Shown here: in pieces, positions 34,008 to 42,592 of the stretch | How positions within the stretch are numbered: position 1 is the stretch's first letter | Layout: each line of letters opens with the position of its first letter | Origin: a virus | Virus record (IMG/VR): IMGVR_UViG_3300047666_001259 | Location: 41,909-105,908 of that record | Length of the DNA: 64,000 bases | Reading direction: 5' to 3' (one strand) | The notes under the pieces: model-generated | What the model was told of the DNA's origin: nothing | Seen by the model: the letters and a program-made list of their open reading frames with translations, nothing else | The model's database searches: none | Made by a program: the position numbers and the translations under genes

Positions 34008-35282
34008 ATGACTCACAAGGAGCTAACAAACATCGAAGGAAGGTATACGCAGTCAACTATTGATGACGATTTATATAAGCTGAACATGCAGTACGCAGCC
34101 TTTGTTCTTTTTCCAAGAGCTAAAGTTCAATATAAGTACATCCTTCGATCTGATGTTAAATTCCCAAAAGGATTCGGAGCCGTCCTGAGAGACATCATCC
34201 ACCAATATTCTGGACTTACTGCTCCAGAAGGTGCAGAAGAGTTTCTTAATAGAAGATGTGGGTATTTACCTCCTACTTTTATAAACTTCTTATTGAATTT
34301 CCGTTTCAACCCTTCTGAGGTTGGAATTATTCAACATAAAGATGGATCAATTGAAATTGATATCGAAGGATACTTTTTCTCAGCTATTAGATGGGAAGTA
34401 ACTTTGATGGCAACAATATCTGAGCTTTACTTCCTAATGACGGGAGAGGCTGATAAGATTGATATCGAAAGAATGAACAATTCTGGAGAAAAAGCAAGTC
34501 ATCTTAGATTGCATGCAATCAAGTTTGCTGAATTTGGAACTCGAAGAAGATTCTCTTATAAAAACCAACTTCATACAGTTAAAGAATTGAAGAGAACTGG
34601 TTGGGACAGTTTTATCGGAACATCTAATGTTCACATCGCCATGATGGAAGATTTAACTCCAATTGGAACTCAAGGTCATGAGTGGTTCATGTTTCACCTA
34701 GCCATGTATGGTGCTAGAATGGCAAATGTCATGGGAATGAGAAATTGGGCTGATGTCTTTAATGGAGACAACGGAATTATCCTTCCTGACACATTTACTA
34801 CTGATGAATTCTTAAAAGTATTTGACAAAAGAATGTCTAAGCTTTATGATGGATCAAGATGGGATTCTGGAAGCTATAAGGATTTCACCGACAAATTCGT
34901 TGAACATTACAAAAAATTCAAAATAGATCACACTTCTAAACAATATGTTTACAGTGATGGGATTAACTCTTTACAAAAGTGTTATGATATCGTAAGCTAC
35001 GGAAATAAAGTTCACGATATTCCTAGATCAAACTTACCTTTAGGTATCGGAACTTGGTTTACCAACGACTTTGAAGGAATCACTCCTTTGAATCAAGTAA
35101 TCAAAATGTGGGCAGCACAACCAATCGAAGACGGAAGGTGGATTGATGTTTGTAAAATTTCTGACTCTTTCGGTAAAGTTACTGGAGAGAAAGAAGAAGC
35201 GGACTTGACTATGAAGGTGCTTGGGGTTAATTTAGAAGACCTTCAGAAAAAGAGTGAAGAAGCAGAAGTGTCAGAAGTATAA
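34008..35282 (+). CDS. pncB: Nicotinate phosphoribosyltransferase
   Basis: DDDLYKLNMQ, EFGTRRRFS, GTSNV, PIGTQGHEW, DT, R.DSG, SDG, GIGT.FTND, KISD..GK. Confidence 0.92.
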   Translation: MTHKELTNIEGRYTQSTIDDDLYKLNMQYAAFVLFPRAKVQYKYILRSDVKFPKGFGAVLRDIIHQYSGLTAPEGAEEFLNRRCGYLPPTFINFLLNFRFNPSEVGIIQHKDGSIEIDIEGYFFSAIRWEVTLMATISELYFLMTGEADKIDIERMNNSGEKASHLRLHAIKFAEFGTRRRFSYKNQLHTVKELKRTGWDSFIGTSNVHIAMMEDLTPIGTQGHEWFMFHLAMYGARMANVMGMRNWADVFNGDNGIILPDTFTTDEFLKVFDKRMSKLYDGSRWDSGSYKDFTDKFVEHYKKFKIDHTSKQYVYSDGINSLQKCYDIVSYGNKVHDIPRSNLPLGIGTWFTNDFEGITPLNQVIKMWAAQPIEDGRWIDVCKISDSFGKVTGEKEEADLTMKVLGVNLEDLQKKSEEAEVSEV

Positions 35283-35692
35283 TGGAAAAAATGGGAAGCA
35301 AATTAACACATAGATTTACAGTATTTCCTCAAGACACCAACAATCTCCAAACTTTATTTGGAGGAAAATTGATGGCTGAGATGGATTTAGCAGCAGCAAC
35401 TCTTTGTAGAAAGCTTTTGATAACATCTGAAGCAGAAGGAGCGGTTACTGCATCTTTCTCTAGGATTGATTTTACAGCACCTGCTCATGTGGATGACTTA
35501 ATCGAAATCAAAGCTGAGTTAAAGATGATTGGAAAATCTTCATTGAGGATACGGTTGGTGGCTTCAAAAGAAGACCCAGACGGAAAGGTAATAAAAATTG
35601 GGAGTTCTAACGCAACTTTTGTATCTTTGAAAGAAGGGAAATCTTTTCCTCATGGAATTAACTGGAACAATGTATGTTCCGAATACTTTTAA
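35282..35692 (+). CDS. Hotdog-fold acyl-CoA thioesterase
   Basis: VFPQDTN...LFGGKLMAEMDLAA...IDF.AP...IGKSSL. Confidence 0.85.
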   Translation: MEKMGSKLTHRFTVFPQDTNNLQTLFGGKLMAEMDLAAATLCRKLLITSEAEGAVTASFSRIDFTAPAHVDDLIEIKAELKMIGKSSLRIRLVASKEDPDGKVIKIGSSNATFVSLKEGKSFPHGINWNNVCSEYF

Positions 35693-35695
35693 AAT

Positions 35696-36334
35696 ATGAT
35701 TACAATAGGTTTATATTTCGGATCATTTAACCCGCTCACGAGAGCGCACTACAAAATTGCAGAACATTCTTTGACTCATTTGGATGAAGTTTGGTTTGTG
35801 GTTTCTCCCGCCAATCCTGATAAGGAAGCAACTGGAGAGTTAGAAGATGCTAGTCATAGGCTTGAAATGGTTAAAAGAACAGTGGATTTCTATAATGAAA
35901 ACAAGAAATCTGTAAACCTATTTGCTTCTGATGTAGAGTTTCATCTTCCTAACCCATCTTGGACTGATTCTTCAATTAAGAAGATTAAAGAAGAGCTTCT
36001 TAGAGATCGAGGTTTGAATGAGGGTGAATATGATCTTCGAATCATTTGTGGTCGTGACACTCACTACAGAATTCAAACTTGGAAGAACAAAGATTACATT
36101 ATTGACAACTGTAGTTTCTTGGTTTATGACCGTGCTGGAGTTGATTCAGTAGAAGACGAAGCTCTTCATCTAAAGAGTTATTATGTTAATGATCTTGGCA
36201 TCCTTCCAATATCTTCTACAATAGTCCGAGAGACTATTCATAAAGGAGGAGAAATATTTAATCTCGTCCCAGATGTCGTTGACTGTTACATTAGAGAGAA
36301 CGGCTTGTATCCTTACAAAACTAAGAAACGATGA
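35696..36334 (+). CDS. nadD: Nicotinate-nucleotide adenylyltransferase
   Basis: YFGSFNPLTRAH, VWFVVSP.NP, I.G.D, WK, ISSTIVRE. Confidence 0.88.
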   Translation: MITIGLYFGSFNPLTRAHYKIAEHSLTHLDEVWFVVSPANPDKEATGELEDASHRLEMVKRTVDFYNENKKSVNLFASDVEFHLPNPSWTDSSIKKIKEELLRDRGLNEGEYDLRIICGRDTHYRIQTWKNKDYIIDNCSFLVYDRAGVDSVEDEALHLKSYYVNDLGILPISSTIVRETIHKGGEIFNLVPDVVDCYIRENGLYPYKTKKR

Positions 36335-36594
36335 TCCCAATAGATATAGAACATGAACTCTATTATGATCGTGGCAAGCCTGAGTTAAGAGAGAGAACTC
36401 GTAATAGATTAATTAAGATGAAAGAGGTTGGGATGGAAGCATACCATAACTATCAATTCGGTTATGAAGGTGTGATGTCAGGTCTTTGGATTGAAAGAGT
36501 TTGGGGCTTTAGTGAAGAGAGATGGAATAAATACATGAAATGGGCAACGGACTTAATTAAAGAGAAAACAGATGAAGCTACTAAGGTGTCCTAA
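36331..36594 (+). CDS. Hypothetical protein
   Basis: Coupled ORF. Confidence 0.5.
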   Translation: MIPIDIEHELYYDRGKPELRERTRNRLIKMKEVGMEAYHNYQFGYEGVMSGLWIERVWGFSEERWNKYMKWATDLIKEKTDEATKVS

Positions 36595-37930
36595 TTGTAA
36601 TGACGTTATCCGTTTAGTTCATATTGAATGGAGAACTTGTGAGTGTGGAGGTTGTGGAGGTCAATATAATAAAGACCTCATGAGCGCAACCATCGGAGGG
36701 AAATGCGATGTAATTGGGCTATCAAATTTATTCTTCAACGAAGACTTTAGAAAAAAGACTTGGGAAGAAAAAGTGGAATTCAGAAAAGAAATTAACCATT
36801 ACCCCGCTGAGATTTGGTTCGGAGAGATGCAAGGCGACAATCAGATCATTCGTATTGAAGACCCTAAAGGTGGGAGAATTGAAATGGATGTAGAGTTTGA
36901 CCCAGAGAGTGAAACTACTAAATCAATCATCACAGACAAAAGAAATTATTTTGTTAACCTTGCTGACGATACAAAGCCGAAAGAATTAATTATTCATAAT
37001 AAAATGGTTCCGTCTTTTAGAGATGCTGAAATGAGATTGGGAGGAAAGTCTTCCGCTGTTGAAGCCATAACAGATAGAACAAAAGAACAAAAGAACAATA
37101 ACATGGAGACAATCAATTACGAAGAAGTAGCAACCCATATTACCAAGTGGTTGAAAAATTACAGCGTAAAAGCTGGGGCTAAAGGATATGTTCTTGGTAT
37201 TTCAGGAGGAGTGGATTCAGCGGTAGTTTCTACTTTGTGTGCCAGAACTGGACTGCCTCTAACTTGTTTGGAAATGCCGATCCACCAAAACGAAGAACAT
37301 GACACTCGTGCTGCAAGACATATTGATTGGCTTGAAGAAAATTTTGATTACGTAACAAGAGAAAGAGTTGATTTGACAGCAACTTTCGATTTGTTCATGA
37401 ACTCAAACAGTATTATTCAAGGTGGGGACATGTCCGCTGTTCGGCTAGCAGGAGCCAACGCCAGAAGTAGACTTAGAATGGTTCAGCTTTACTTAATAGC
37501 TTCAATCAAGAATATGTTGGTCTGCGGTACGGGAAACAAGGTTGAAGATTTTGGTGTAGGATTCTATACTAAGTACGGTGATGGAGGAGTTGATGTAAGT
37601 CCAATTGCAGACCTTTTAAAGACAGAAGTTTGGGGATTGGCAAAACACCTTGGAATAAACGAAGAAATCGTTTCTGCCATACCTTCAGATGGTTTGTGGG
37701 GAGATACTAGATCAGATGAAGATCAGATTGGAGCCTCTTACCCAGAGCTTGAATGGGCAATGGCTTATATCGATAAAAATTACACTGACATTTCAATGGG
37801 GGTTCATCCTTACAATGATGTTACGGAAAGACAAATGGAAGTAATTGACATTTATAGAGGATTCAATTCTCGAAACCAACACAAGATGGTAGAGATTCCC
37901 GTTTGCGATGTTTCTAAATTTAGAAATTAA
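36572..37930 (+). CDS. nadE: NH3-dependent NAD+ synthetase with an N-terminal Zn-ribbon domain (NadE domain from about 37103)
   Basis: LGISGGVDSAV, NARSRLRM, GTGNKVE..VGFYTKYGDGG, PIADL.KTEV, PSDGLW, DEDQIG, NQHK. Confidence 0.92.
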   Translation: MKLLRCPNCNDVIRLVHIEWRTCECGGCGGQYNKDLMSATIGGKCDVIGLSNLFFNEDFRKKTWEEKVEFRKEINHYPAEIWFGEMQGDNQIIRIEDPKGGRIEMDVEFDPESETTKSIITDKRNYFVNLADDTKPKELIIHNKMVPSFRDAEMRLGGKSSAVEAITDRTKEQKNNNMETINYEEVATHITKWLKNYSVKAGAKGYVLGISGGVDSAVVSTLCARTGLPLTCLEMPIHQNEEHDTRAARHIDWLEENFDYVTRERVDLTATFDLFMNSNSIIQGGDMSAVRLAGANARSRLRMVQLYLIASIKNMLVCGTGNKVEDFGVGFYTKYGDGGVDVSPIADLLKTEVWGLAKHLGINEEIVSAIPSDGLWGDTRSDEDQIGASYPELEWAMAYIDKNYTDISMGVHPYNDVTERQMEVIDIYRGFNSRNQHKMVEIPVCDVSKFRN

Positions 37931-37948
37931 TAACATTTAAATCGAATT

Positions 37949-38260
37949 ATGAAAAAAGAAAATTTAATAGAACAATATAAAGAAATATCGAAAACATATT
38001 CATCTTTTGAAGATTGTTATAATCTTGTAACAGAAACTAATAATGTAGAAATATGTAAATTTTGTTTAGATTCTGATGGTATTTGGAAAAGACTTGAATT
38101 ACAATGGATGTTGGAATTTTTTCAAACCAACGAAGAATATGAAAAATGTGAAGTTTTGAAAAAATTAATAGAAGAACATTTTATTGCTGATGAATATAAA
38201 CAAAATGAGTTGAATAGTAAATTAGATGAATATGTTTCTTATATAAATAACGGTAGTTAG
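37949..38260 (+). CDS. Hypothetical protein, UVR-like motif
   Basis: LEFFQTNEEYEKCEVLK; very AT-rich; left flank of the cassette array. Confidence 0.55.
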   Translation: MKKENLIEQYKEISKTYSSFEDCYNLVTETNNVEICKFCLDSDGIWKRLELQWMLEFFQTNEEYEKCEVLKKLIEEHFIADEYKQNELNSKLDEYVSYINNGS

Positions 38261-38601
38261 TAATCCTATATAAGAATAGTAATAAAGGACGTGGAACTGC
38301 CGCTAATGAAATAATGAGTGGTTATGCGTTGTATAATAACAACTGTGCTGAACCCACTTGGTTACTTACTGAGTTTAATTATTTAAAAGAAACAACAAAT
38401 ATTAAATTCAAAAAATACTTTGGATATAAATTAACTGAAGAAGAAAGCGTTGTGTTTTGCTATGAAAATGATTGATATAATGAGTGAGACACTAAGGAGT
38501 GCAAAGGGAGTGCCTAATGGCTCTTTTCGGTGTGCCGATGACGAATGTATGTTATCCCCCTCTCATTCATTATATCTTTTGTTATTGTGCGTTTTAATAC
38601 A

Positions 38602-38810
38602 CTCTAACGGTTTGTGTATGGGTATTTTTTGCCCGATTTAATAATAACTAAAATTTAATAAAATGACTGAGGAAATTAAGCAATTACTGATTGACTGTGC
38701 AAACTTTATCCAACCGTATGATGATGGAGGAAACGAAGCTGAAAGGTTAATGATAAGACTTGATGAAGCACTAAAGCAAGGGTAATAATTACCTATACAC
38801 GTTGTTGTAT
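38602..38810 (+). repeat. attC-like site A (209 bp, loop carries a 40-codon ORF)
   Basis: CTCTAAC 38602-08; arms 38614-34 / 38780-800; GTTGTAT 38804-10. Confidence 0.8.
38663..38785 (+). CDS. 40-aa ORF inside an attC-like loop (possibly truncated)
   Basis: MTEEIKQLLIDCANFIQPYDDGGNEAERLMIRLDEALKQG*; A-rich leader. Confidence 0.5.
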   Translation: MTEEIKQLLIDCANFIQPYDDGGNEAERLMIRLDEALKQG

Positions 38811-38897
38811 GTCTTTTTTAATTGCATACAATATGTTGTATGTGCCGTTATGAGGCACGAGCAATGAATTTTAAACCTTGTTAGGCACTTTACGATA

Positions 38898-39089
38898 ATG
38901 GATAAGATGGAATCATTCACGTACAAAGGCTTCAAGGTAGACCCAACTTGTTATAACTATGGTTTTGAATGTATAGTTCAAGACGAAGCACCAAAGCTAT
39001 TTGGTATGTCTATAAATGGCATCAAGTTAGAGATTGACGAATGGATTAAAAAAGAAAAAAGGGAAGGGGAAAACTTAGAGTACCTATAA
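38898..39089 (+). CDS. Cassette ORF, hypothetical
   Basis: Follows GTTAGGCAC at 38880; ends in a degenerate complement TAGAGTACCTATA. Confidence 0.55.
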   Translation: MDKMESFTYKGFKVDPTCYNYGFECIVQDEAPKLFGMSINGIKLEIDEWIKKEKREGENLEYL

Positions 39090-39106
39090 AATTAAAGACA
39101 AATAAA

Positions 39107-39412
39107 ATGAACGAATCAAAAGAAATGATGGGGGAGCAATGTTTAACCGAAAAACAAACATTAAAAACCTCTTTAGAAAAATTAAACCAAAGAAACTATG
39201 AACTGAATGATATTGCGTCATTAAGTTCTCTATTAGTAGAAAAATTCTTTAACCCTAATAACGAGCCTAGAGATAATCAAGGTTCTGATAGAGAAAAAGA
39301 AAGACAGCCTGATAATATAGTTGAAGTTTTTGACGAGGTATCTAAAAAGCTTGGTAATAACATAAACACTATTGGGAGCAATTTGCAAAGAATATTGGCA
39401 ATAATGGAATAA
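39107..39412 (+). CDS. Cassette-region ORF, hypothetical coiled coil
   Basis: ORF track. Confidence 0.55.
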   Translation: MNESKEMMGEQCLTEKQTLKTSLEKLNQRNYELNDIASLSSLLVEKFFNPNNEPRDNQGSDREKERQPDNIVEVFDEVSKKLGNNINTIGSNLQRILAIME

Positions 39413-39481
39413 CCAACTTGTGAGCGTGGGCTTTTTCTTATTAGCAGAATGTTTGATTTGAAACTGAATTTAGCCCATGAC

Positions 39482-39575
39482 TTACAACGTTTAGGCTAAG
39501 GTTAGTAGCCTTTAATACTAACCATTAAATTATAACAAGACCTATTGAGGCTATTAATTTTAGCCATTGTTAGGC
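39482..39575 (+). repeat. attC-like site B (94 bp)
   Basis: TTACAAC; 17-bp stem 39494-510 / 39549-565 (3 G-T pairs); GTTAGGC. Confidence 0.85.
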
Positions 39576-39585
39576 ATAGTTTATT

Positions 39586-39789
39586 ATGGAAGCAAGAGAA
39601 TTTTACGACAAAAGAATTAACGAAGAACCGACTATTGGAAGCGTACAGTTAATGGAAGAATATGCAAAACATATTATTGAAATTAACTTTTGTGATGGCT
39701 CTCCTATTGAATTTAACAAACTATCGGTTGAGCAACTAAAAACAATTCACAAAAATATAAATAAGTGTGTCGATTGGGTTAACTCCTAA
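39586..39789 (+). CDS. Cassette ORF, hypothetical
   Basis: Between GTTAGGCATAGTT and AATTGTGCCTAAC; LMEEYAK motif. Confidence 0.6.
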   Translation: MEAREFYDKRINEEPTIGSVQLMEEYAKHIIEINFCDGSPIEFNKLSVEQLKTIHKNINKCVDWVNS

Positions 39790-39793
39790 TTGT

Positions 39794-39924
39794 GCCTAAC
39801 GGAATTGTATAAGGTTTCGTTACGTAGATTAAATAATAAATTAACAAATAAAAACTGAATTGTGATTAAGCAAGAAAATAATAAACAAACAGAAATTAGT
39901 AATGAACTTTATACGGTGTTATGC
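39794..39924 (+). repeat. attC-like site C (131 bp)
   Basis: GCCTAAC; arms 39807-23 / 39899-914 with one bulged T; GTTATGC. Confidence 0.85.
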
Positions 39925-40200
39925 CCCGTTAATTTGTTTAGGTACTTCCTTCGCAAGCAATACAAAGACGTTGAAATTAGTAACGAAGAATGCGATGAAT
40001 TAAACACAGACTTTCACAAACACTTAACAAGCCTAAAGTTAAGCGAAAAGCAAAAGGAAAACATAATGCCTAAAAGTGAAATAGATGTAATAATGAACTC
40101 TGAACACCCATTAAGAATGGATGGATTTAGCCCTGCTTATGTTTTTCATTTTGGTGAATATATAAAAAGTAGAGCAGTCGCATTGGCTAATGGGGCATAG
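39862..40200 (+). CDS. Cassette ORF starting inside the site C loop
   Basis: GTG start in the loop; reads through GTTATGC (ELYTVLCPV); TAG stop lies in the next site's left box. Confidence 0.6.
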   Translation: MIKQENNKQTEISNELYTVLCPVNLFRYFLRKQYKDVEISNEECDELNTDFHKHLTSLKLSEKQKENIMPKSEIDVIMNSEHPLRMDGFSPAYVFHFGEYIKSRAVALANGA

Positions 40201-40205
40201 CTGTT

Positions 40206-40394
40206 GTTATCGGCAGTTTAATTGAAAAATATCAAAAAGTTCGCAATAAAAATCAGGAGCAATTTATGACTCAATTTGGAAATGAATATTCTATATCAAA
40301 CGCACTTTTATTGGAAGAAAGAGATTGTTGCGACAGATTTATAGAAGATTTGAAAAAACTGCCGATAACGGCTGATGATAAACAATCGTTTTAA
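40206..40394 (+). pseudogene. Headless cassette ORF (62 codons) after a collapsed site
   Basis: VIGSLIEKYQKVRN...LKKLPITADDKQSF* open from the GTT; upstream hairpin reduced to GCATAGC-tgtt-GTTATCG. Confidence 0.5.
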
Positions 40395-40416
40395 TGTTGT
40401 TTATCATTTGTTATGT
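40363..40416 (+). repeat. attC-like site E (54 bp, minimal)
   Basis: CGATAAC-ggctg-ATGATAAACAA-tcgttttaatg-TTGTTTATCAT-tt-GTTATGT. Confidence 0.85.
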
Positions 40417-40525
40417 GTAGGTGTGGTTAATTAAGGTAGAATGTTTAATCGGAGAACTGAACAAAAATTTTAAAAGAAAAAGAAGGGTTGATTTTAAAAT
40501 TTGAATATTTATATATAAACATATT

Positions 40526-41044
40526 ATGAGTGAAGATATGAGAAAAATGATTGATAAAGCTAAGAACTTTAATCAGTTTTTAAATGAAAACGAAAATTTA
40601 ATGAACCAAATATTAGATAAAATTAGTTCTAATGGTATAACATCATTAAATACTGGTGAATTAAAATATTTGAAACAATATTCTTCTGGACAAATAAATC
40701 CAGATTTAGAAAAAGCACTTCAAGTTGAAAGTGGTTTTGTTTTTGTTTCAAAAAATATACCACTGTTAAGATTTGAATATAATTTCACCGAAGAATCAGA
40801 TGAAGAATATCAAAAAATGCTACACAAAGGAACCGTTTATATTGACGGATTAGAATTTGATGGAGATATTTATTGTGATGAAAATGGAAAATATGAAGCA
40901 TTCGATTTTCACACATATCAATCCAATGATGATGGCACAACTGACCAAATAGAAGATTTAGCTTACTATGATGATGAGTTAGATGGTAAGATAGAAAAAT
41001 TCTTTAAAAATGAAGTTTCTCCTTACTTAACCTATTCATTTTAA
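40526..41044 (+). CDS. Cassette-borne late-type protein
   Basis: Own TATTTAT at 40506; N-terminus ...NFNQFLNENE; ILDKISSNGITSLN.GE..YL. Confidence 0.65.
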   Translation: MSEDMRKMIDKAKNFNQFLNENENLMNQILDKISSNGITSLNTGELKYLKQYSSGQINPDLEKALQVESGFVFVSKNIPLLRFEYNFTEESDEEYQKMLHKGTVYIDGLEFDGDIYCDENGKYEAFDFHTYQSNDDGTTDQIEDLAYYDDELDGKIEKFFKNEVSPYLTYSF

Positions 41045-41093
41045 AAAGTTGGCGGGATTTTTCTTTTAAAATTTTCAACCGAAATGTTGATTA

Positions 41094-41133
41094 GAACGAT
41101 AAACGGAACGATAAACGGAACGATAAACGGAAC
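41094..41133 (+). repeat. 12-bp tandem repeat (GAACGATAAACG x3.3)
   Basis: Directly visible. Confidence 0.9.
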
Positions 41134-41139
41134 ACTTAC

Positions 41140-41236
41140 ACATAACGTTAAGTATATGGTTTTGTAAGCCATAGCAGAAATTTACAAATTAAAAACGAAT
41201 ATTAATTAGGCTTATAAACTATATACATTGTTGTGT
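41140..41236 (+). repeat. attC-like site F (97 bp)
   Basis: ACATAAC; arms 41152-70 / 41209-26 with one bulged T; GTTGTGT. Confidence 0.85.
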
Positions 41237-41270
41237 GTAATACGGGATTTAAGCCACAAACTTTATAAAA

Positions 41271-41453
41271 ATGCAAAGAAAGATAAATTGCAAACACAAC
41301 AACATGGGTGCTTGGTGTACCAACAAGGATATAAAACGCTCATTGTTTGGTATAGGTGCAAGATGTTGTACTGAATTTAATGACAAAAAATGTGATTTAA
41401 AAGAAATTAGAACAAGGAAAGGCAAGCCGCCACCAAGACCAACGAAAGCGTAG
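41271..41453 (+). CDS. Cassette ORF, small Cys-rich protein
   Basis: Between GTTGTGTGTAATAC and GTATTACACACAAT. Confidence 0.6.
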   Translation: MQRKINCKHNNMGAWCTNKDIKRSLFGIGARCCTEFNDKKCDLKEIRTRKGKPPPRPTKA

Positions 41454-41459
41454 TATTAC

Positions 41460-41684
41460 ACACAATGTTATGGATATGGATTGATTTTTAACGGATAAAT
41501 AAACACAGAATTATGAATATAGACGAAGAAAATAAAGCAAAAGAATTTTACATTAAGAGTGCTATAAATGGCATTCATACACCACGAACTAATATGGTTG
41601 AGATAAACTATTTAGATATGCTAAAGCTAATGCACTCTTACAGCCAAGAGGTAGTTAAAAATTTATCTATATCTGGTGTTAAGA
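41460..41684 (+). repeat. attC-like site G (225 bp)
   Basis: ACACAAT; arms 41473-92 / 41654-73; GTTAAGA. Confidence 0.8.
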
Positions 41685-41851
41685 ACTGGGTGGCGGTTAA
41701 AGACTCTATGCCCGAAAATTGCGACCAAGTTTTTGTAAAGTATGAAAATGGCAAATATGGAATAAATGAATGGTGGAAAAGTGATGATTGCTGGAAATAC
41801 CAATTTGATAATATGATAGTAAAAGAATGGTGTAAGCCACCTTGTTCTTAA
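41513..41851 (+). CDS. Cassette ORF with a C-terminal DUF551-like domain, starting inside the site G loop
   Basis: WVAVKDSMPE...V...W...P.PP; stop is the TAA of TCTTAAC. Confidence 0.65.
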   Translation: MNIDEENKAKEFYIKSAINGIHTPRTNMVEINYLDMLKLMHSYSQEVVKNLSISGVKNWVAVKDSMPENCDQVFVKYENGKYGINEWWKSDDCWKYQFDNMIVKEWCKPPCS

Positions 41852-41915
41852 CGTCTCGTATATGGTGTCGGAATTTTATTTTTCTTAAAATTATGCATTA
41901 TATACTTTGTTACCA
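41846..41915 (+). repeat. attC-like site H (70 bp)
   Basis: TCTTAAC-gtctc-GTATATGGTG...CATTATATAC-ttt-GTTACCA. Confidence 0.8.
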
Positions 41916-41945
41916 ATAGTACGGATTTTAATAACTAAATTTAAT

Positions 41946-42227
41946 ATGAAAACAATAACTTCAATTATAGCACTAGCTAAGGCATTTTTTATATTGCTTG
42001 TTAGGCGTAGTGCTTCTTTACCGCAAGTCTTAATGACTAAAAATGATTTTGAATTAGTTTTAAACCACTATCTACTAAATTATTGGGATATAAAACATGA
42101 AAATATTGATGGATTTGAACATTTAACAATTCAAAATCATTTACCATTTTATAAAAAAAGGTTTGAAGAAATGAAAAAAGTAATTGATGAACGCAAGATT
42201 ATTCGTGTGATGGTGCATTACACCTAA
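41946..42227 (+). CDS. Cassette ORF reading through the half site at 42000
   Basis: ATG 41946; ILLVRRSAS spans GTTAGGC; stop is the TAA of ACCTAAC. Confidence 0.55.
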   Translation: MKTITSIIALAKAFFILLVRRSASLPQVLMTKNDFELVLNHYLLNYWDIKHENIDGFEHLTIQNHLPFYKKRFEEMKKVIDERKIIRVMVHYT

Positions 42228-42273
42228 CACTGGAATAGATTGCGTTTCAATGCAACTCTATGGAATGTTAAAG
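42222..42273 (+). repeat. attC-like site J (52 bp)
   Basis: ACCTAAC; ATAGATTGC-gtttcaat-GCAACTCTAT; GTTAAAG. Confidence 0.75.
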
Positions 42274-42307
42274 CACGTTTTAATGTGCTAAATTTTAAAT
42301 TCATAAA

Positions 42308-42592
42308 ATGAAAGATTTGAAACCAAATTTTAAATCAGTTAGAGAACTCTGTGAAGAGTTCGGAGTTCAGGTAGAGCTTTCTTTCGGGAAGAAATTTAGA
42401 GCTATCGTGAGCAATGATGAAGAAATTCATGTGTTACAAAACGGATGGGATAAAAATCTAATTGAAGAAATCTCAGCCTTATCTGCTGAGATGTGGAAAA
42501 GAGAAGAAAAAAGATATAAGGAGATTTCTGATAGGCTTAAAAACTTAGACCCTGAAATCTTTCCAGACAACTTATTTGAAGATAAAGAATAA
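42308..42592 (+). CDS. Hypothetical protein
   Basis: ORF track. Confidence 0.55.
   Translation: MKDLKPNFKSVRELCEEFGVQVELSFGKKFRAIVSNDEEIHVLQNGWDKNLIEEISALSAEMWKREEKRYKEISDRLKNLDPEIFPDNLFEDKE

Follow-up and report, generated by a model that had tools for sequence, protein, structure and literature searches.

The question raised by this locus is why several hairpins, some of them without any gene, share the same core in their loops. They were found in the window, a stretch of 64,000 nucleotides (positions 41,909 to 105,908) of the IMG/VR viral contig IMGVR_UViG_3300047666_001259, which is 105.9 kb long and approximately 31% complete. The first-pass annotation regarded them as empty units and shortest sites of two hairpin types and suggested that their core might be the template or the scar of cassette construction. 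We consider it probable that a large phage of Flavobacteriia carries an integron-like array of gene cassettes here, in which an attC-like site folds into a rod with two loadable ends, the empty end being capped by the core. The core is an integral end part of the site, and in loaded cassettes its two halves enclose the gene; no observation made here identifies it as a construction template or a scar.

All five elements, i.e. the empty units 38581-38608, 38804-38832 and 42267-42289 and the shortest sites with the core at 40387 and 42243, are present where they had been placed. The motif CGTTTYAATG matches the window three times (40387, 42243 and 42276), always on the + strand and within 1.9 kb, against an expected 0.25 matches; none of 100 dinucleotide shuffles of the window reached three, and the whole 105.9-kb contig holds no additional copy of this motif. 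The sequence CGTTTTAAT occurs three times in the contig, each time at window positions 38590-42284. The annotation was to be given up if the core were no commoner than chance or absent from homologous arrays. As it is far above chance and present in homologous phage and host arrays, the annotation withstands this test.

The unit 38581-38608 had been annotated as an empty hairpin, but only seven of its nine arm positions pair and on its own it is unstable (DNA fold -0.7 kcal/mol, z -0.1); it is recognizable by family likeness alone, as model R2, built from independent viral contigs, matches window positions 38567-38624 (E 0.0055). The unit 38804-38832 folds into a good hairpin (z -3.3); its loop, however, is degenerate and matches the core at 7 of 11 positions. 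The unit terminates in AAT, and the model from independent viral contigs misses it. The unit 42267-42289 folds (z -2.3) but lacks the closing AAC, and R2 matches weakly at 42253-42308 (E 0.11). Some of the window units may be decayed, 38581 being thermodynamically insignificant and 38804 being missed by the model. The AAC..GTT sites fold with z -4.6 (40376-40408) and z -2.4 (42234-42262), and model R1 matches window positions 40360-40418 with 70.5 bits. The other array of the contig, which falls outside the window, has two more copies, at contig positions 32902-32939 and approximately 34690.

The core caps two classes of hairpins: type A, which reads AAC-spacer-stem-core-stem-spacer-GTT, and type B, which reads GTT-N6-core-N6-AAC. 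That one core is common to both types, and that both can take cargo, had been read correctly from the window. Both classes occur in many Flavobacteriia phages and host chromosomes, with freely covarying stems. Among 119 bacterial-genome placements of the 19-mer around the type-A core, GTT lies exactly 13 nt downstream in 36, and AAC lies 15-18 nt upstream of the core in 43. The flank complementarity of 114 viral core-N6-AAC matches of type B is bimodal (50 with 8-9 of 9 pairs, 64 with five or fewer), and this is the unbiased evidence. The alignments of type A and type B (A1 and A2) were selected for pairing and their counts are therefore biased: 97.9% of stem cells are paired in 34 type-A sites, with 57 double changes versus 18 in shuffles, and 99.3% of cells in 48 type-B sites, with 96 double changes versus 25. 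AAC and GTT are invariant in all of these aligned sites, the L boxes resemble GTATATG / CATATAC, and the two sides differ in spacer length (4-6 nt versus 1-4 nt).

As the core is invariant while the stems covary across dozens of unrelated genomes, purifying selection is indicated, and the suggestion of a scar is contradicted. We find it scarcely credible that the empty units are scars of gene deletion between inverted arms, or chance AT-rich palindromes. Such origins would suit the degeneration of two of the three window units and the G+C content of the region, which is only approximately 30%. They do not suit the excess of CGTTTYAATG, the identical core on dozens of different stems, or the fixed geometry (a 9-bp stem, 6 nt to AAC and 13 nt to GTT); nor would independent deletions be expected to leave the same 10-11 nt.

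On the coding strand, the recombination site runs from AAC through a 4-6-nt spacer, a GTATATG-like L'' box and the apex to the L' box, and then through a spacer of 1-4 nt to GTT and an arm. One strand, presumably folding as single-stranded DNA, would give a rod with an L end and an R (arm) end, and cargo can be carried at either: in class 1 the gene lies between the arms and in class 2 between the L boxes. The cargo-free end is closed by a common cap, (T)CGTTTTAATG, in which, judging from folds of single sequences only, C-G, G.T and T-A pairs probably enclose a TTTA loop, one T being bulged. On this reading, types A and B are the two ends of one folded attC-like site; the 'empty units' are unloaded R ends (type B), and the two 'shortest sites' are unloaded L ends (type A). 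A short Xer/IntI-like recombinase would cleave between the second A and the C of AAC; the cap would be recognized as well and would thereby indicate which strand folds.

The array and those of its units that illustrate this architecture are as follows:

38249..42228, + strand: whole cassette array of approximately 10 units, from the first to the last AAC junction
38470..38608, + strand: gene-less cassette with spacer, L'' box, non-coding interior, L' box, TTTT spacer and an apparently decayed type-B cap hairpin
38609..38832, + strand: class-2 cassette carrying its gene at the L end, composed of spacer, L'' box, ORF, L' box, GTT spacer and type-B hairpin
39569..39800, + strand: class-1 unit with arm GTTAGGCA, ORF 39586-39789 and arm TGCCTAAC
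40206..40369, + strand: GTT..AAC unit with perfect 14-nt arms around 136 nt
40370..41146, + strand: class-1 cassette with its gene at the R end, composed of type-A hairpin, arm, ORF and complementary arm
42229..42294, + strand: terminal double-capped unit with type-A hairpin, GGAAT spacer and type-B-like hairpin

The first AAC junction overlaps the end of ORF 37949-38260, and the further junctions (AAC or AAT) end at 38469, 38608, 38832, 39488, 39800, 40369, 41146, 41466, 41852 and 42228. After each AAC of the array come a G, another 4-6 nt and then an L'' box resembling GTATATG. The attC-like sites of the window lie at 40373-40424, 41147-41243, 41853-41922 and 42229-42294.

In the gene-less cassette, a 16-nt L'' box (38474-38489) and the L' box (38561-38576) enclose 71 nt of structured non-coding DNA; positions 38462-38608 fold with z -3.9, and the layout and size (approximately 146 nt) are those of gene-less cassettes in viral contigs. 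The class-2 cassette has its L'' box at 38614-38624, an ORF of 40 aa at 38663-38785 and an L' box at 38790-38800, complementary at 10 of 11 positions. The class-1 unit 39569..39800 has inner flanks, TAGTTT and TAATTG, that are nearly identical to the core halves, and its stop codon lies inside the right half; the same arms bracket a different gene (gp6) in Cellulophaga phage phi17:1. Flanks similar to the core halves (AGTTT / AAACT) also line the unit 40206..40369, whose interior holds the start of a doubtful 42-aa ORF (40266-40394). The class-1 cassette 40370..41146 contains a type-A hairpin (40373-40408) bearing the core as its apical cap (40387-40396), and its ORF 40526-41044 (DUF6576) is enclosed by 15-nt arms with one mismatch (40410-40424 and 41132-41146, the latter ending in AAC). 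The terminal unit follows the last AAC of the array (42226-42228) and precedes a gene starting at 42308; it joins a type-A hairpin (42235-42261, core CGTTTCAATG) to a core-bearing type-B-like hairpin (42267-42294), the one noted above for its missing AAC. The contig's other array ends in the same double-capped layout, near contig position 34690.

Filled and empty units were aligned, as the annotation had proposed, and at the GTT..AAC end the cargo lies exactly between the halves CGTT and AATG. In 30 loaded cassettes found in other phages and in arrays of hosts, these halves stand exactly at the borders of the gene; they do so in 16 of 274 perfect-arm pairs from viruses and 14 of 230 from hosts, versus 0 of 241 and 0 of 277 in controls. 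Exact halves are a minority of the perfect-arm pairs, and other cassettes show variants, e.g. CAGTT..AACCGA or AAT..ACT; in the array of a Lacinutrix host the halves at the cargo borders are visible by eye. Since they sit at the gene borders in loaded cassettes, the two halves of the R-end cap are fixed boundary boxes of the site. At the AAC..GTT (L) end, the halves are kept in none of 35 loaded cassettes. Cargo in class 2 is recognizable by its L boxes: for 35 of the 49 viral type-B hairpins, a complement of the preceding L' box lies 85-1243 nt farther upstream, directly behind an AAC (decoys, 2 and 4 of 49), the interval containing an ORF of 47-288 aa or approximately 88 nt of non-coding DNA, and the cassette 38609..38832 shares this architecture.

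The same data bear on the suggested template. According to this explanation, the doubly capped empty unit is a chassis into which a dedicated or host process loads an ORF between CGTT and AATG, so empty units would be precursors. It would account for loaded cassettes whose 9-nt arms are identical to those of known empty hairpins, e.g. arms GTTAGCAAA / TTTGCTAAC, which hold cargo in L340 and L267 but none in L271, L282, L290 and L326, and for ORF starts and stops only a few bases from the core halves. A common leader and trailer enclose three unrelated ORFs in L102, L113 and L192, and the doubly capped unit terminates both arrays of the contig. However, this pattern is equally expected if the halves are required parts of the site, and the absence of the halves from L-end loaded cassettes means that a simple loop-insertion model does not fit all the data. 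The arms of many loaded units exceed 9 bp (14-15 bp in several loaded window units versus the fixed 9 bp of the empty hairpin), and neither a loading enzyme nor an intermediate was seen. We regard a template as unlikely and return to the two-ended site.

A recombinase is found near such sites in other phages and in one host. Five of the 49 type-B viral loci carry a tyrosine recombinase of 266-296 aa (Xer/IntI-like). In three of the five it shares the strand of the type-B hairpin and begins 21-60 nt beyond the AAC of that hairpin. In the Lacinutrix chromosome, a 278-aa homologue (42% identity) is divergent from a row of at least nine cassettes, a canonical array with the same boxes and spacer asymmetry as the phage sites. 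The best profile for the recombinases beside related arrays is NF040815 (147-188 bits, cut-off 220), and they match TIGR02249 in two stretches with 73-155 bits (cut-off 265), i.e. below the cut-off for an IntI with its specific extra domain, which does not adjoin the array in this contig either. PF00589 has no match in the contig, approximately 31% complete, which thus carries no recombinase; the enzyme would therefore come from the missing part of the phage genome, the host or a co-infecting phage.

Dispersed copies in hosts, which had no adjoining recombinase where examined, bring up transposable elements that are small and non-autonomous, either MITE- or REP-like or mobilized by a single-strand transposase, and that would spread by themselves, independently of cassettes. 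An element of approximately 110 nt has 13-27 dispersed copies per host genome in unrelated contexts, and copies 90-96% identical occur in unrelated Cellulophaga phages. We nevertheless think this very unlikely, as boxes, spacer asymmetry and AAC borders are the same as in the recombinase-adjoining array sites, and hosts also have same-strand clusters between small accessory genes. No transposase recurs nearby, the sole recurrent neighbour being a DNA methyltransferase, as cargo, and unbiased ORF clustering around 120 host and 49 viral sites yielded no transposase family. IS200/IS605 and REP/RAYT elements use a Y1 (HUH) transposase and have no terminal inverted repeats, whereas the units here have complementary ends. 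Solo copies could be accounted for by cassette insertion outside att sites, which has been reported for classical integrases (bioRxiv 10.1101/2022.09.11.507474). A CRISPR repeat or solitary mimic did not fit, as here the stems vary and the loop is constant, the opposite of CRISPR repeats, and no identical repeats are arrayed at regular intervals in the window. The CRISPR repeats of Bacteroidota have GTTG..CAAC ends.

An alternative is a function in RNA: the hairpins might terminate the phage transcripts, serve as sites for their processing or stabilize them, the conserved loop being bound by an RNA-binding protein. All phage-array copies lie on the coding strand between genes, a T run follows the last hairpin of the contig's other array, and attC sites have been reported to be weak terminators (PMC9892861). 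On the other hand, in those host clusters that were examined the core runs antisense to the genes on either side; its orientation tracks the AAC/GTT asymmetry and not the direction of transcription; a T run is missing after at least four of the five window hairpins, Rfam contains no family matching the hairpins, and cassette borders with neighbouring recombinases indicate a role in DNA. Intrinsic (Rho-independent) terminators were rejected, the stems being A+T-rich or short and the T run being confined to the end of the other array. A function in RNA alone therefore seems improbable to us, and a secondary one besides the role in DNA may exist.

The two-ended site resembles the integron attC in its imperfect hairpins, inverse core ..AAC and core GTT.., second pair of boxes and asymmetric unpaired spacer, features by which an attC site is recognized. 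Cassette-specific complementary ends and, in a host and some phages, a tyrosine recombinase beside the array are likewise shared with integrons. Integrase-less clusters (CALINs) have been reported in virulent phages, e.g. Polaribacter phage P12002L (Qi et al. 2023, PMC9892861), and as in integrons and CALINs each unit here holds one or a few small accessory genes, DNA methyltransferases being frequent cargo (PMC9892861). In contrast to integrons, the phage genes lie on the strand bearing the folding polarity, so each hairpin precedes its gene. The gene can also sit inside the hairpin between the L boxes, at the position of the variable terminal structure; in window unit 38609-38832 and in the same 35 of 49 viral type-B contexts it is thus not placed between R boxes under a non-coding apex. 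Further differences are the empty end closed by one invariant cap, with halves that are fixed boundary boxes, and the short recombinase, below the integron-integrase cut-off and with a two-piece profile match.

ORF-less integron cassettes occur in Vibrio and Treponema arrays, and there too gene-free units with cassette borders are interspersed among loaded ones. Here, however, their minimal form is defined: it is a hairpin of 29 nt whose cap is constant, which recurs in many genomes and doubles as the 3' end of loaded class-2 cassettes. The Vibrio cholerae repeats (VCR) are a homogeneous attC type of one lineage, and such homogeneity is the usual argument for local cassette making from a common site. 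The site described here is also conserved lineage-wide, but only in its boxes and cap; stems and arms vary with compensation, and hosts and phages share the site type. Arbiol et al. reportedly described in 2010 promoter-early stem-loops (PeSL) flanking small genes in the hyperplastic regions of T4-type phages. They similarly bracket small accessory phage genes with conserved hairpin elements that allow modular shuffling, but are thought to work by homologous recombination between conserved promoter elements, whereas here there are 3-nt core borders, cassette-specific ends and an associated site-specific recombinase. The CTX phage employs Xer/dif recombination and integrates by a single-strand hairpin; a short Xer-type tyrosine recombinase and, if folding occurs as proposed, a folded single strand as its substrate would be common to both systems. 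The present sites have no dif-like 11-6-11 organization and form cassette arrays instead of integrating one element.

Exchange of cassettes was visible in three sister Cellulophaga phages (phi17:1, phi18:1 and phi12:1), which are approximately 96% identical on both sides of one variable slot carrying one, two or three different genes. The left identity breaks directly after a common ...TAAC, and the right identity returns directly after the insert's own ...AAC, at a core-carrying type-A hairpin. Three cassettes sharing a frame diverge straight after the type-B AAC. In this small sample, one trio of sister phages and these three cassettes, cassettes are exchanged as units at the core triplet.

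In classical integrons, cargo is carried at one end only of the folded attC site; the site described here has two loadable ends and a constant minimal closure, and the two halves of this closure define where the cargo starts and stops with single-base precision. Such cassettes can thus be located by a simple sequence rule in phages and hosts of the Bacteroidota, and the many 'orphan' hairpins of their genomes may be explained. Type A, type B and the doubly capped unit would be small defined substrates for studying recognition, strand choice and possibly cargo loading by a short recombinase. We know of no account of how a gene first acquires its attC. It is a doubtful idea that the doubly capped gene-less unit is a working chassis for new cassettes, with ORFs loaded between CGTT and AATG; if so, the birth of integron-type cassettes could be studied with a defined substrate of 29-150 nt. 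The finding would also bear on the swapping of accessory genes, including anti-restriction methyltransferases, among Flavobacteriia phages.

The contig of 105.9 kb, whose bases 41909-105908 make up the window, was rated 31% complete by CheckV, which makes it a fragment of a very large phage; no tyrosine recombinase was found in it at this completeness, and the window contains no tRNA genes. The array stretch, at 38.2-42.3 kb, comes after an NAD-salvage operon and holds about ten small ORFs on the + strand, for which family matches are almost absent. The array region had no match in Rfam. Its main features are:

34008-37930, directly upstream of the array: NAD-salvage operon (nicotinate phosphoribosyltransferase, 4HBT thioesterase, cytidylyltransferase-like protein, NAD synthase)
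38470-38608: gene-less cassette, for which the common size is about 146 nt
38609-38832: class 2 cassette, with the gene between L boxes and the core between 9-nt arms
40206-40219 with 40356-40369: complementary arm pair
40370-41146: class 1 cassette, with its L end closed by the core and the gene between arms
40410-40424 with 41132-41146: complementary arm pair
41230-41243 with 41453-41466: complementary arm pair
42229-42294: doubly capped unit that closes the array but lacks a final AAC; the other array finishes in like manner

All units end in ..AAC, sometimes in AAT. The AAC is followed by G, 4-6 bases and a GTATATG-like box (L''), and ahead of each GTT there is a complementary CATATAC-like box (L') plus 1-4 bases. 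The arms past GTT and ahead of AAC are complementary inside one unit and differ from unit to unit. A promoter role for the GTATATG box was dropped because the box pairs with a partner downstream and occurs in both orientations. A second array in the contig, upstream of the window, has the same features and two additional copies of the core. The cassette of ORF 40526-41044 also contains a perfect 18-nt inverted repeat (40464-40481 with 41058-41075) bracketing the ORF and, just inside its right arm, three tandem copies of the 12-nt unit ACGATAAACGGA (41096-41131). A generic inverted-repeat search was abandoned, as this A+T-rich DNA gave excess noise.

The five sequences named in the first-pass annotation are all present in the window, and the core is commoner than chance: CGTTTYAATG has 3 matches in the window against 0.25 expected, a number reached by none of 100 shuffles. 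The whole contig has no further copies of this motif, and every copy lies on the coding strand. When folded as single-stranded DNA, four of the five hairpins beat shuffled sequences, at z -2.3 to -4.6, and the fifth, at 38581, folds no better than shuffles (z -0.1). The ATG of the core opens just an 8-codon frame in the window, and a start-codon role was therefore discarded.

Close relatives of the array were not found via NadE (the relative ends at the gene) or the HD/kinase gene (none), and the DUF6576 cargo used as a query gave one partial match only. Short pieces of the intergenic elements are shared with Maribacter phage Panino, Cellulophaga phage phi17:1 and an uncultured 462-kb phage. 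A 34-nt stretch of an intergenic hairpin region (38851-38884) is identical to positions 2501-2534 of the Panino locus L082.

In three sister Cellulophaga phages, one slot contains one, two or three different genes, and the sequence flanking it on either side is about 96% identical among them. At the left border, identity ends directly after a common ..TAAC; on the right, every insert ends in its own ..AAC and identity restarts at a core-bearing AAC..GTT hairpin. These borders suggest that the mobile unit begins just past one AAC and extends through the following AAC, its hairpin ahead of the gene; few comparisons stand behind this crossover point. In phi17:1, a direct duplication of 180 bp (locus L083, 858-1037 and 1832-2011) comprising the capped hairpin, a promoter-like region and the first codons of gp5 brackets a gp7-gp6 insert. 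The inner end of this duplication is not at an AAC, thus not every rearrangement there is site-specific.

The core-bearing AAC..GTT hairpin (type A) also occurs in four further unrelated Cellulophaga phages, at 90-96% identity. An exact scan with the 19-mer around the core matched at least 120 bacterial contigs, mostly of Flavobacteriaceae; among 119 placements, GTT lies exactly 13 nt 3' of the core in 36 and AAC 15-18 nt 5' in 43. In an alignment of 34 type-A sites, which had been picked for pairing, 97.9% of stem cells pair and double changes number 57 versus 18 in shuffles. R1, the covariance model of these sites, whose training set demanded A4/T4 beside the core, matches 40360-40418 at 70.5 bits and 13-27 copies in Olleya and Lacinutrix genomes, where they are dispersed or form small same-strand clusters between small accessory genes. 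A custom AAC..GTT hairpin scanner was too noisy on the host loci and was dropped. In Flavobacteriaceae (L096, L133, L153 and other loci) the capped hairpin belongs to a conserved element, about 110 nt long and ending in a T run and ..ACAAAGTCAAG. The contexts of this element are unrelated; in one case it lies about 70 nt past a tRNA-like 3' end.

The GTT-N6-core-N6-AAC hairpin (type B) was sought in viral contigs as the core with N6-AAC directly behind it, which turned up 114 matches. In this count, which is free of selection, complementarity of the 9-base flanks is bimodal: 50 matches have 8-9 pairs (39 of them perfect) and 64 have five or fewer. Type-B stems vary widely, with 99.3% pairing. 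Their covariance model, R2, matches a unit of the contig's other array (E 2.8e-4) and, in the window, 38567-38624 (E 0.0055) and 42253-42308 (E 0.11), and misses 38804-38832; the E-values of both models are rough. The first-pass annotation had proposed that the core might be a scar of cassette construction. This is contradicted by the invariance of the core loop CGTTTTAAT over freely covarying stems, which points to selection.

An L' box precedes the type-B hairpin, and the L'' box of the next unit comes after its AAC. Of 49 type-B hairpins, 35 have the complement of their L' box 85-1243 nt upstream, just past an AAC, as compared with 2/49 and 4/49 for decoys. The paired L boxes enclose either an ORF (47-288 aa) or about 88 nt of DNA that is structured and non-coding. 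This gives two cassette classes, and the earlier proposal that the two hairpin types share the core and can each hold cargo is borne out. The gene-less interiors (38490-38560 in the window; about 85-91 nt in comparison loci L226, L229, L243, L251, L265 and L311) are structured and non-coding, measure about 70-90 nt and have a long closing stem that begins ..AGTG(G/C)GG. They are tRNA-like by eye, yet are not tRNAs, and the ~88-nt interiors match no Rfam family. One of them, in L229, stands directly ahead of a recombinase gene.

On a Lacinutrix chromosome, a gene for a 278-aa recombinase is divergent from at least nine small genes. Sites of 125-160 nt lie between these genes and show, on the bottom strand, the boxes and the spacer asymmetry of the phage sites. 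Read on the coding strand, these cassettes are GTT-N6-CATT..gene..AACGA-N6-AAC, so that the gene separates the two halves of the reverse-complemented core, and empty hairpins with identical arms occur in viral contigs. Among all perfect 9-nt arm pairs enclosing 120-2600 nt, both halves are exact in 16/274 viral and 14/230 host pairs of the GTTR..YAAC kind, and in 0/241 and 0/277 of the GTTY..RAAC control pairs. Other cassettes have variants that keep a C-G pair, an A.C mismatch and an extra A, and the window units 39569-39800 and 40206-40369 carry near-copies of the halves. At the L end, the core halves are kept in none of 35 loaded cassettes. The suggestion that the empty unit is a template for gene loading fits this end poorly, is not required by the data and seems to us improbable.

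Two sites of the Lacinutrix array (L338, 13810-14119 and 15381-15727) share an insert of about 190 nt at the AAC|GTT junction. This G+C-rich segment consists of nested GTT..AAC palindromes and may be a gene-less unit of another kind. About 250 nt beside the recombinase gene (L338, 10434-11062) are repeated at the opposite end of the array (after 19377) and may represent a docking (attI-like) region in two copies.

Unbiased clustering of ORFs near the sites returned DNA methyltransferases (cargo), phage structural genes and a tyrosine recombinase. The latter, of 266-296 aa, is present at 5 of 49 type-B loci, and in three contigs it starts 21-60 nt past the type-B AAC on the same strand. This short enzyme reached the cut-off of neither the XerA/integron-integrase model nor the integron-integrase model, the second of which matched in two pieces. 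Four host genomes have one homologue each (38-45% identity; 32-39% for their other tyrosine recombinases), and relatives of the Lacinutrix enzyme were found in about 45 Bacteroidota contigs. The Aquimarina homologue locus stops at a contig end. The homologues in Olleya and Formosa that are closest to the phage enzyme were set aside, since their frames are longer (395-406 aa) and small ORFs form no evident row alongside. Two host copies have a tyrosine recombinase at a distance of about 9 kb; these genes lie in conserved core-gene neighbourhoods in both genomes with no arrays adjoining, resemble housekeeping Xer genes and were likewise set aside. Among recognisable cargo beside the sites, N6/N4 DNA methyltransferases are the commonest (L113, L163, L168, L205, L219, L252, L256; L087 656-1459), and the Polaribacter phage cluster in the literature carries them too.

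The hairpins are unlikely to act purely in RNA, given that the core runs antisense to the genes in those host clusters that were inspected. Integrase-less attC clusters have been described in 17 phages, including Polaribacter phage P12002L with its methyltransferase cargo, one site of which recombined with attI1 under IntI1 (PMC9892861). No paper placing the core sequence in such a context came up in a full-text search, whose matches were primers only. Judged from sequence, the core is probably the minimal closure of the unloaded end of a folded, attC-like site, and at the arm end its halves are fixed boundary boxes.
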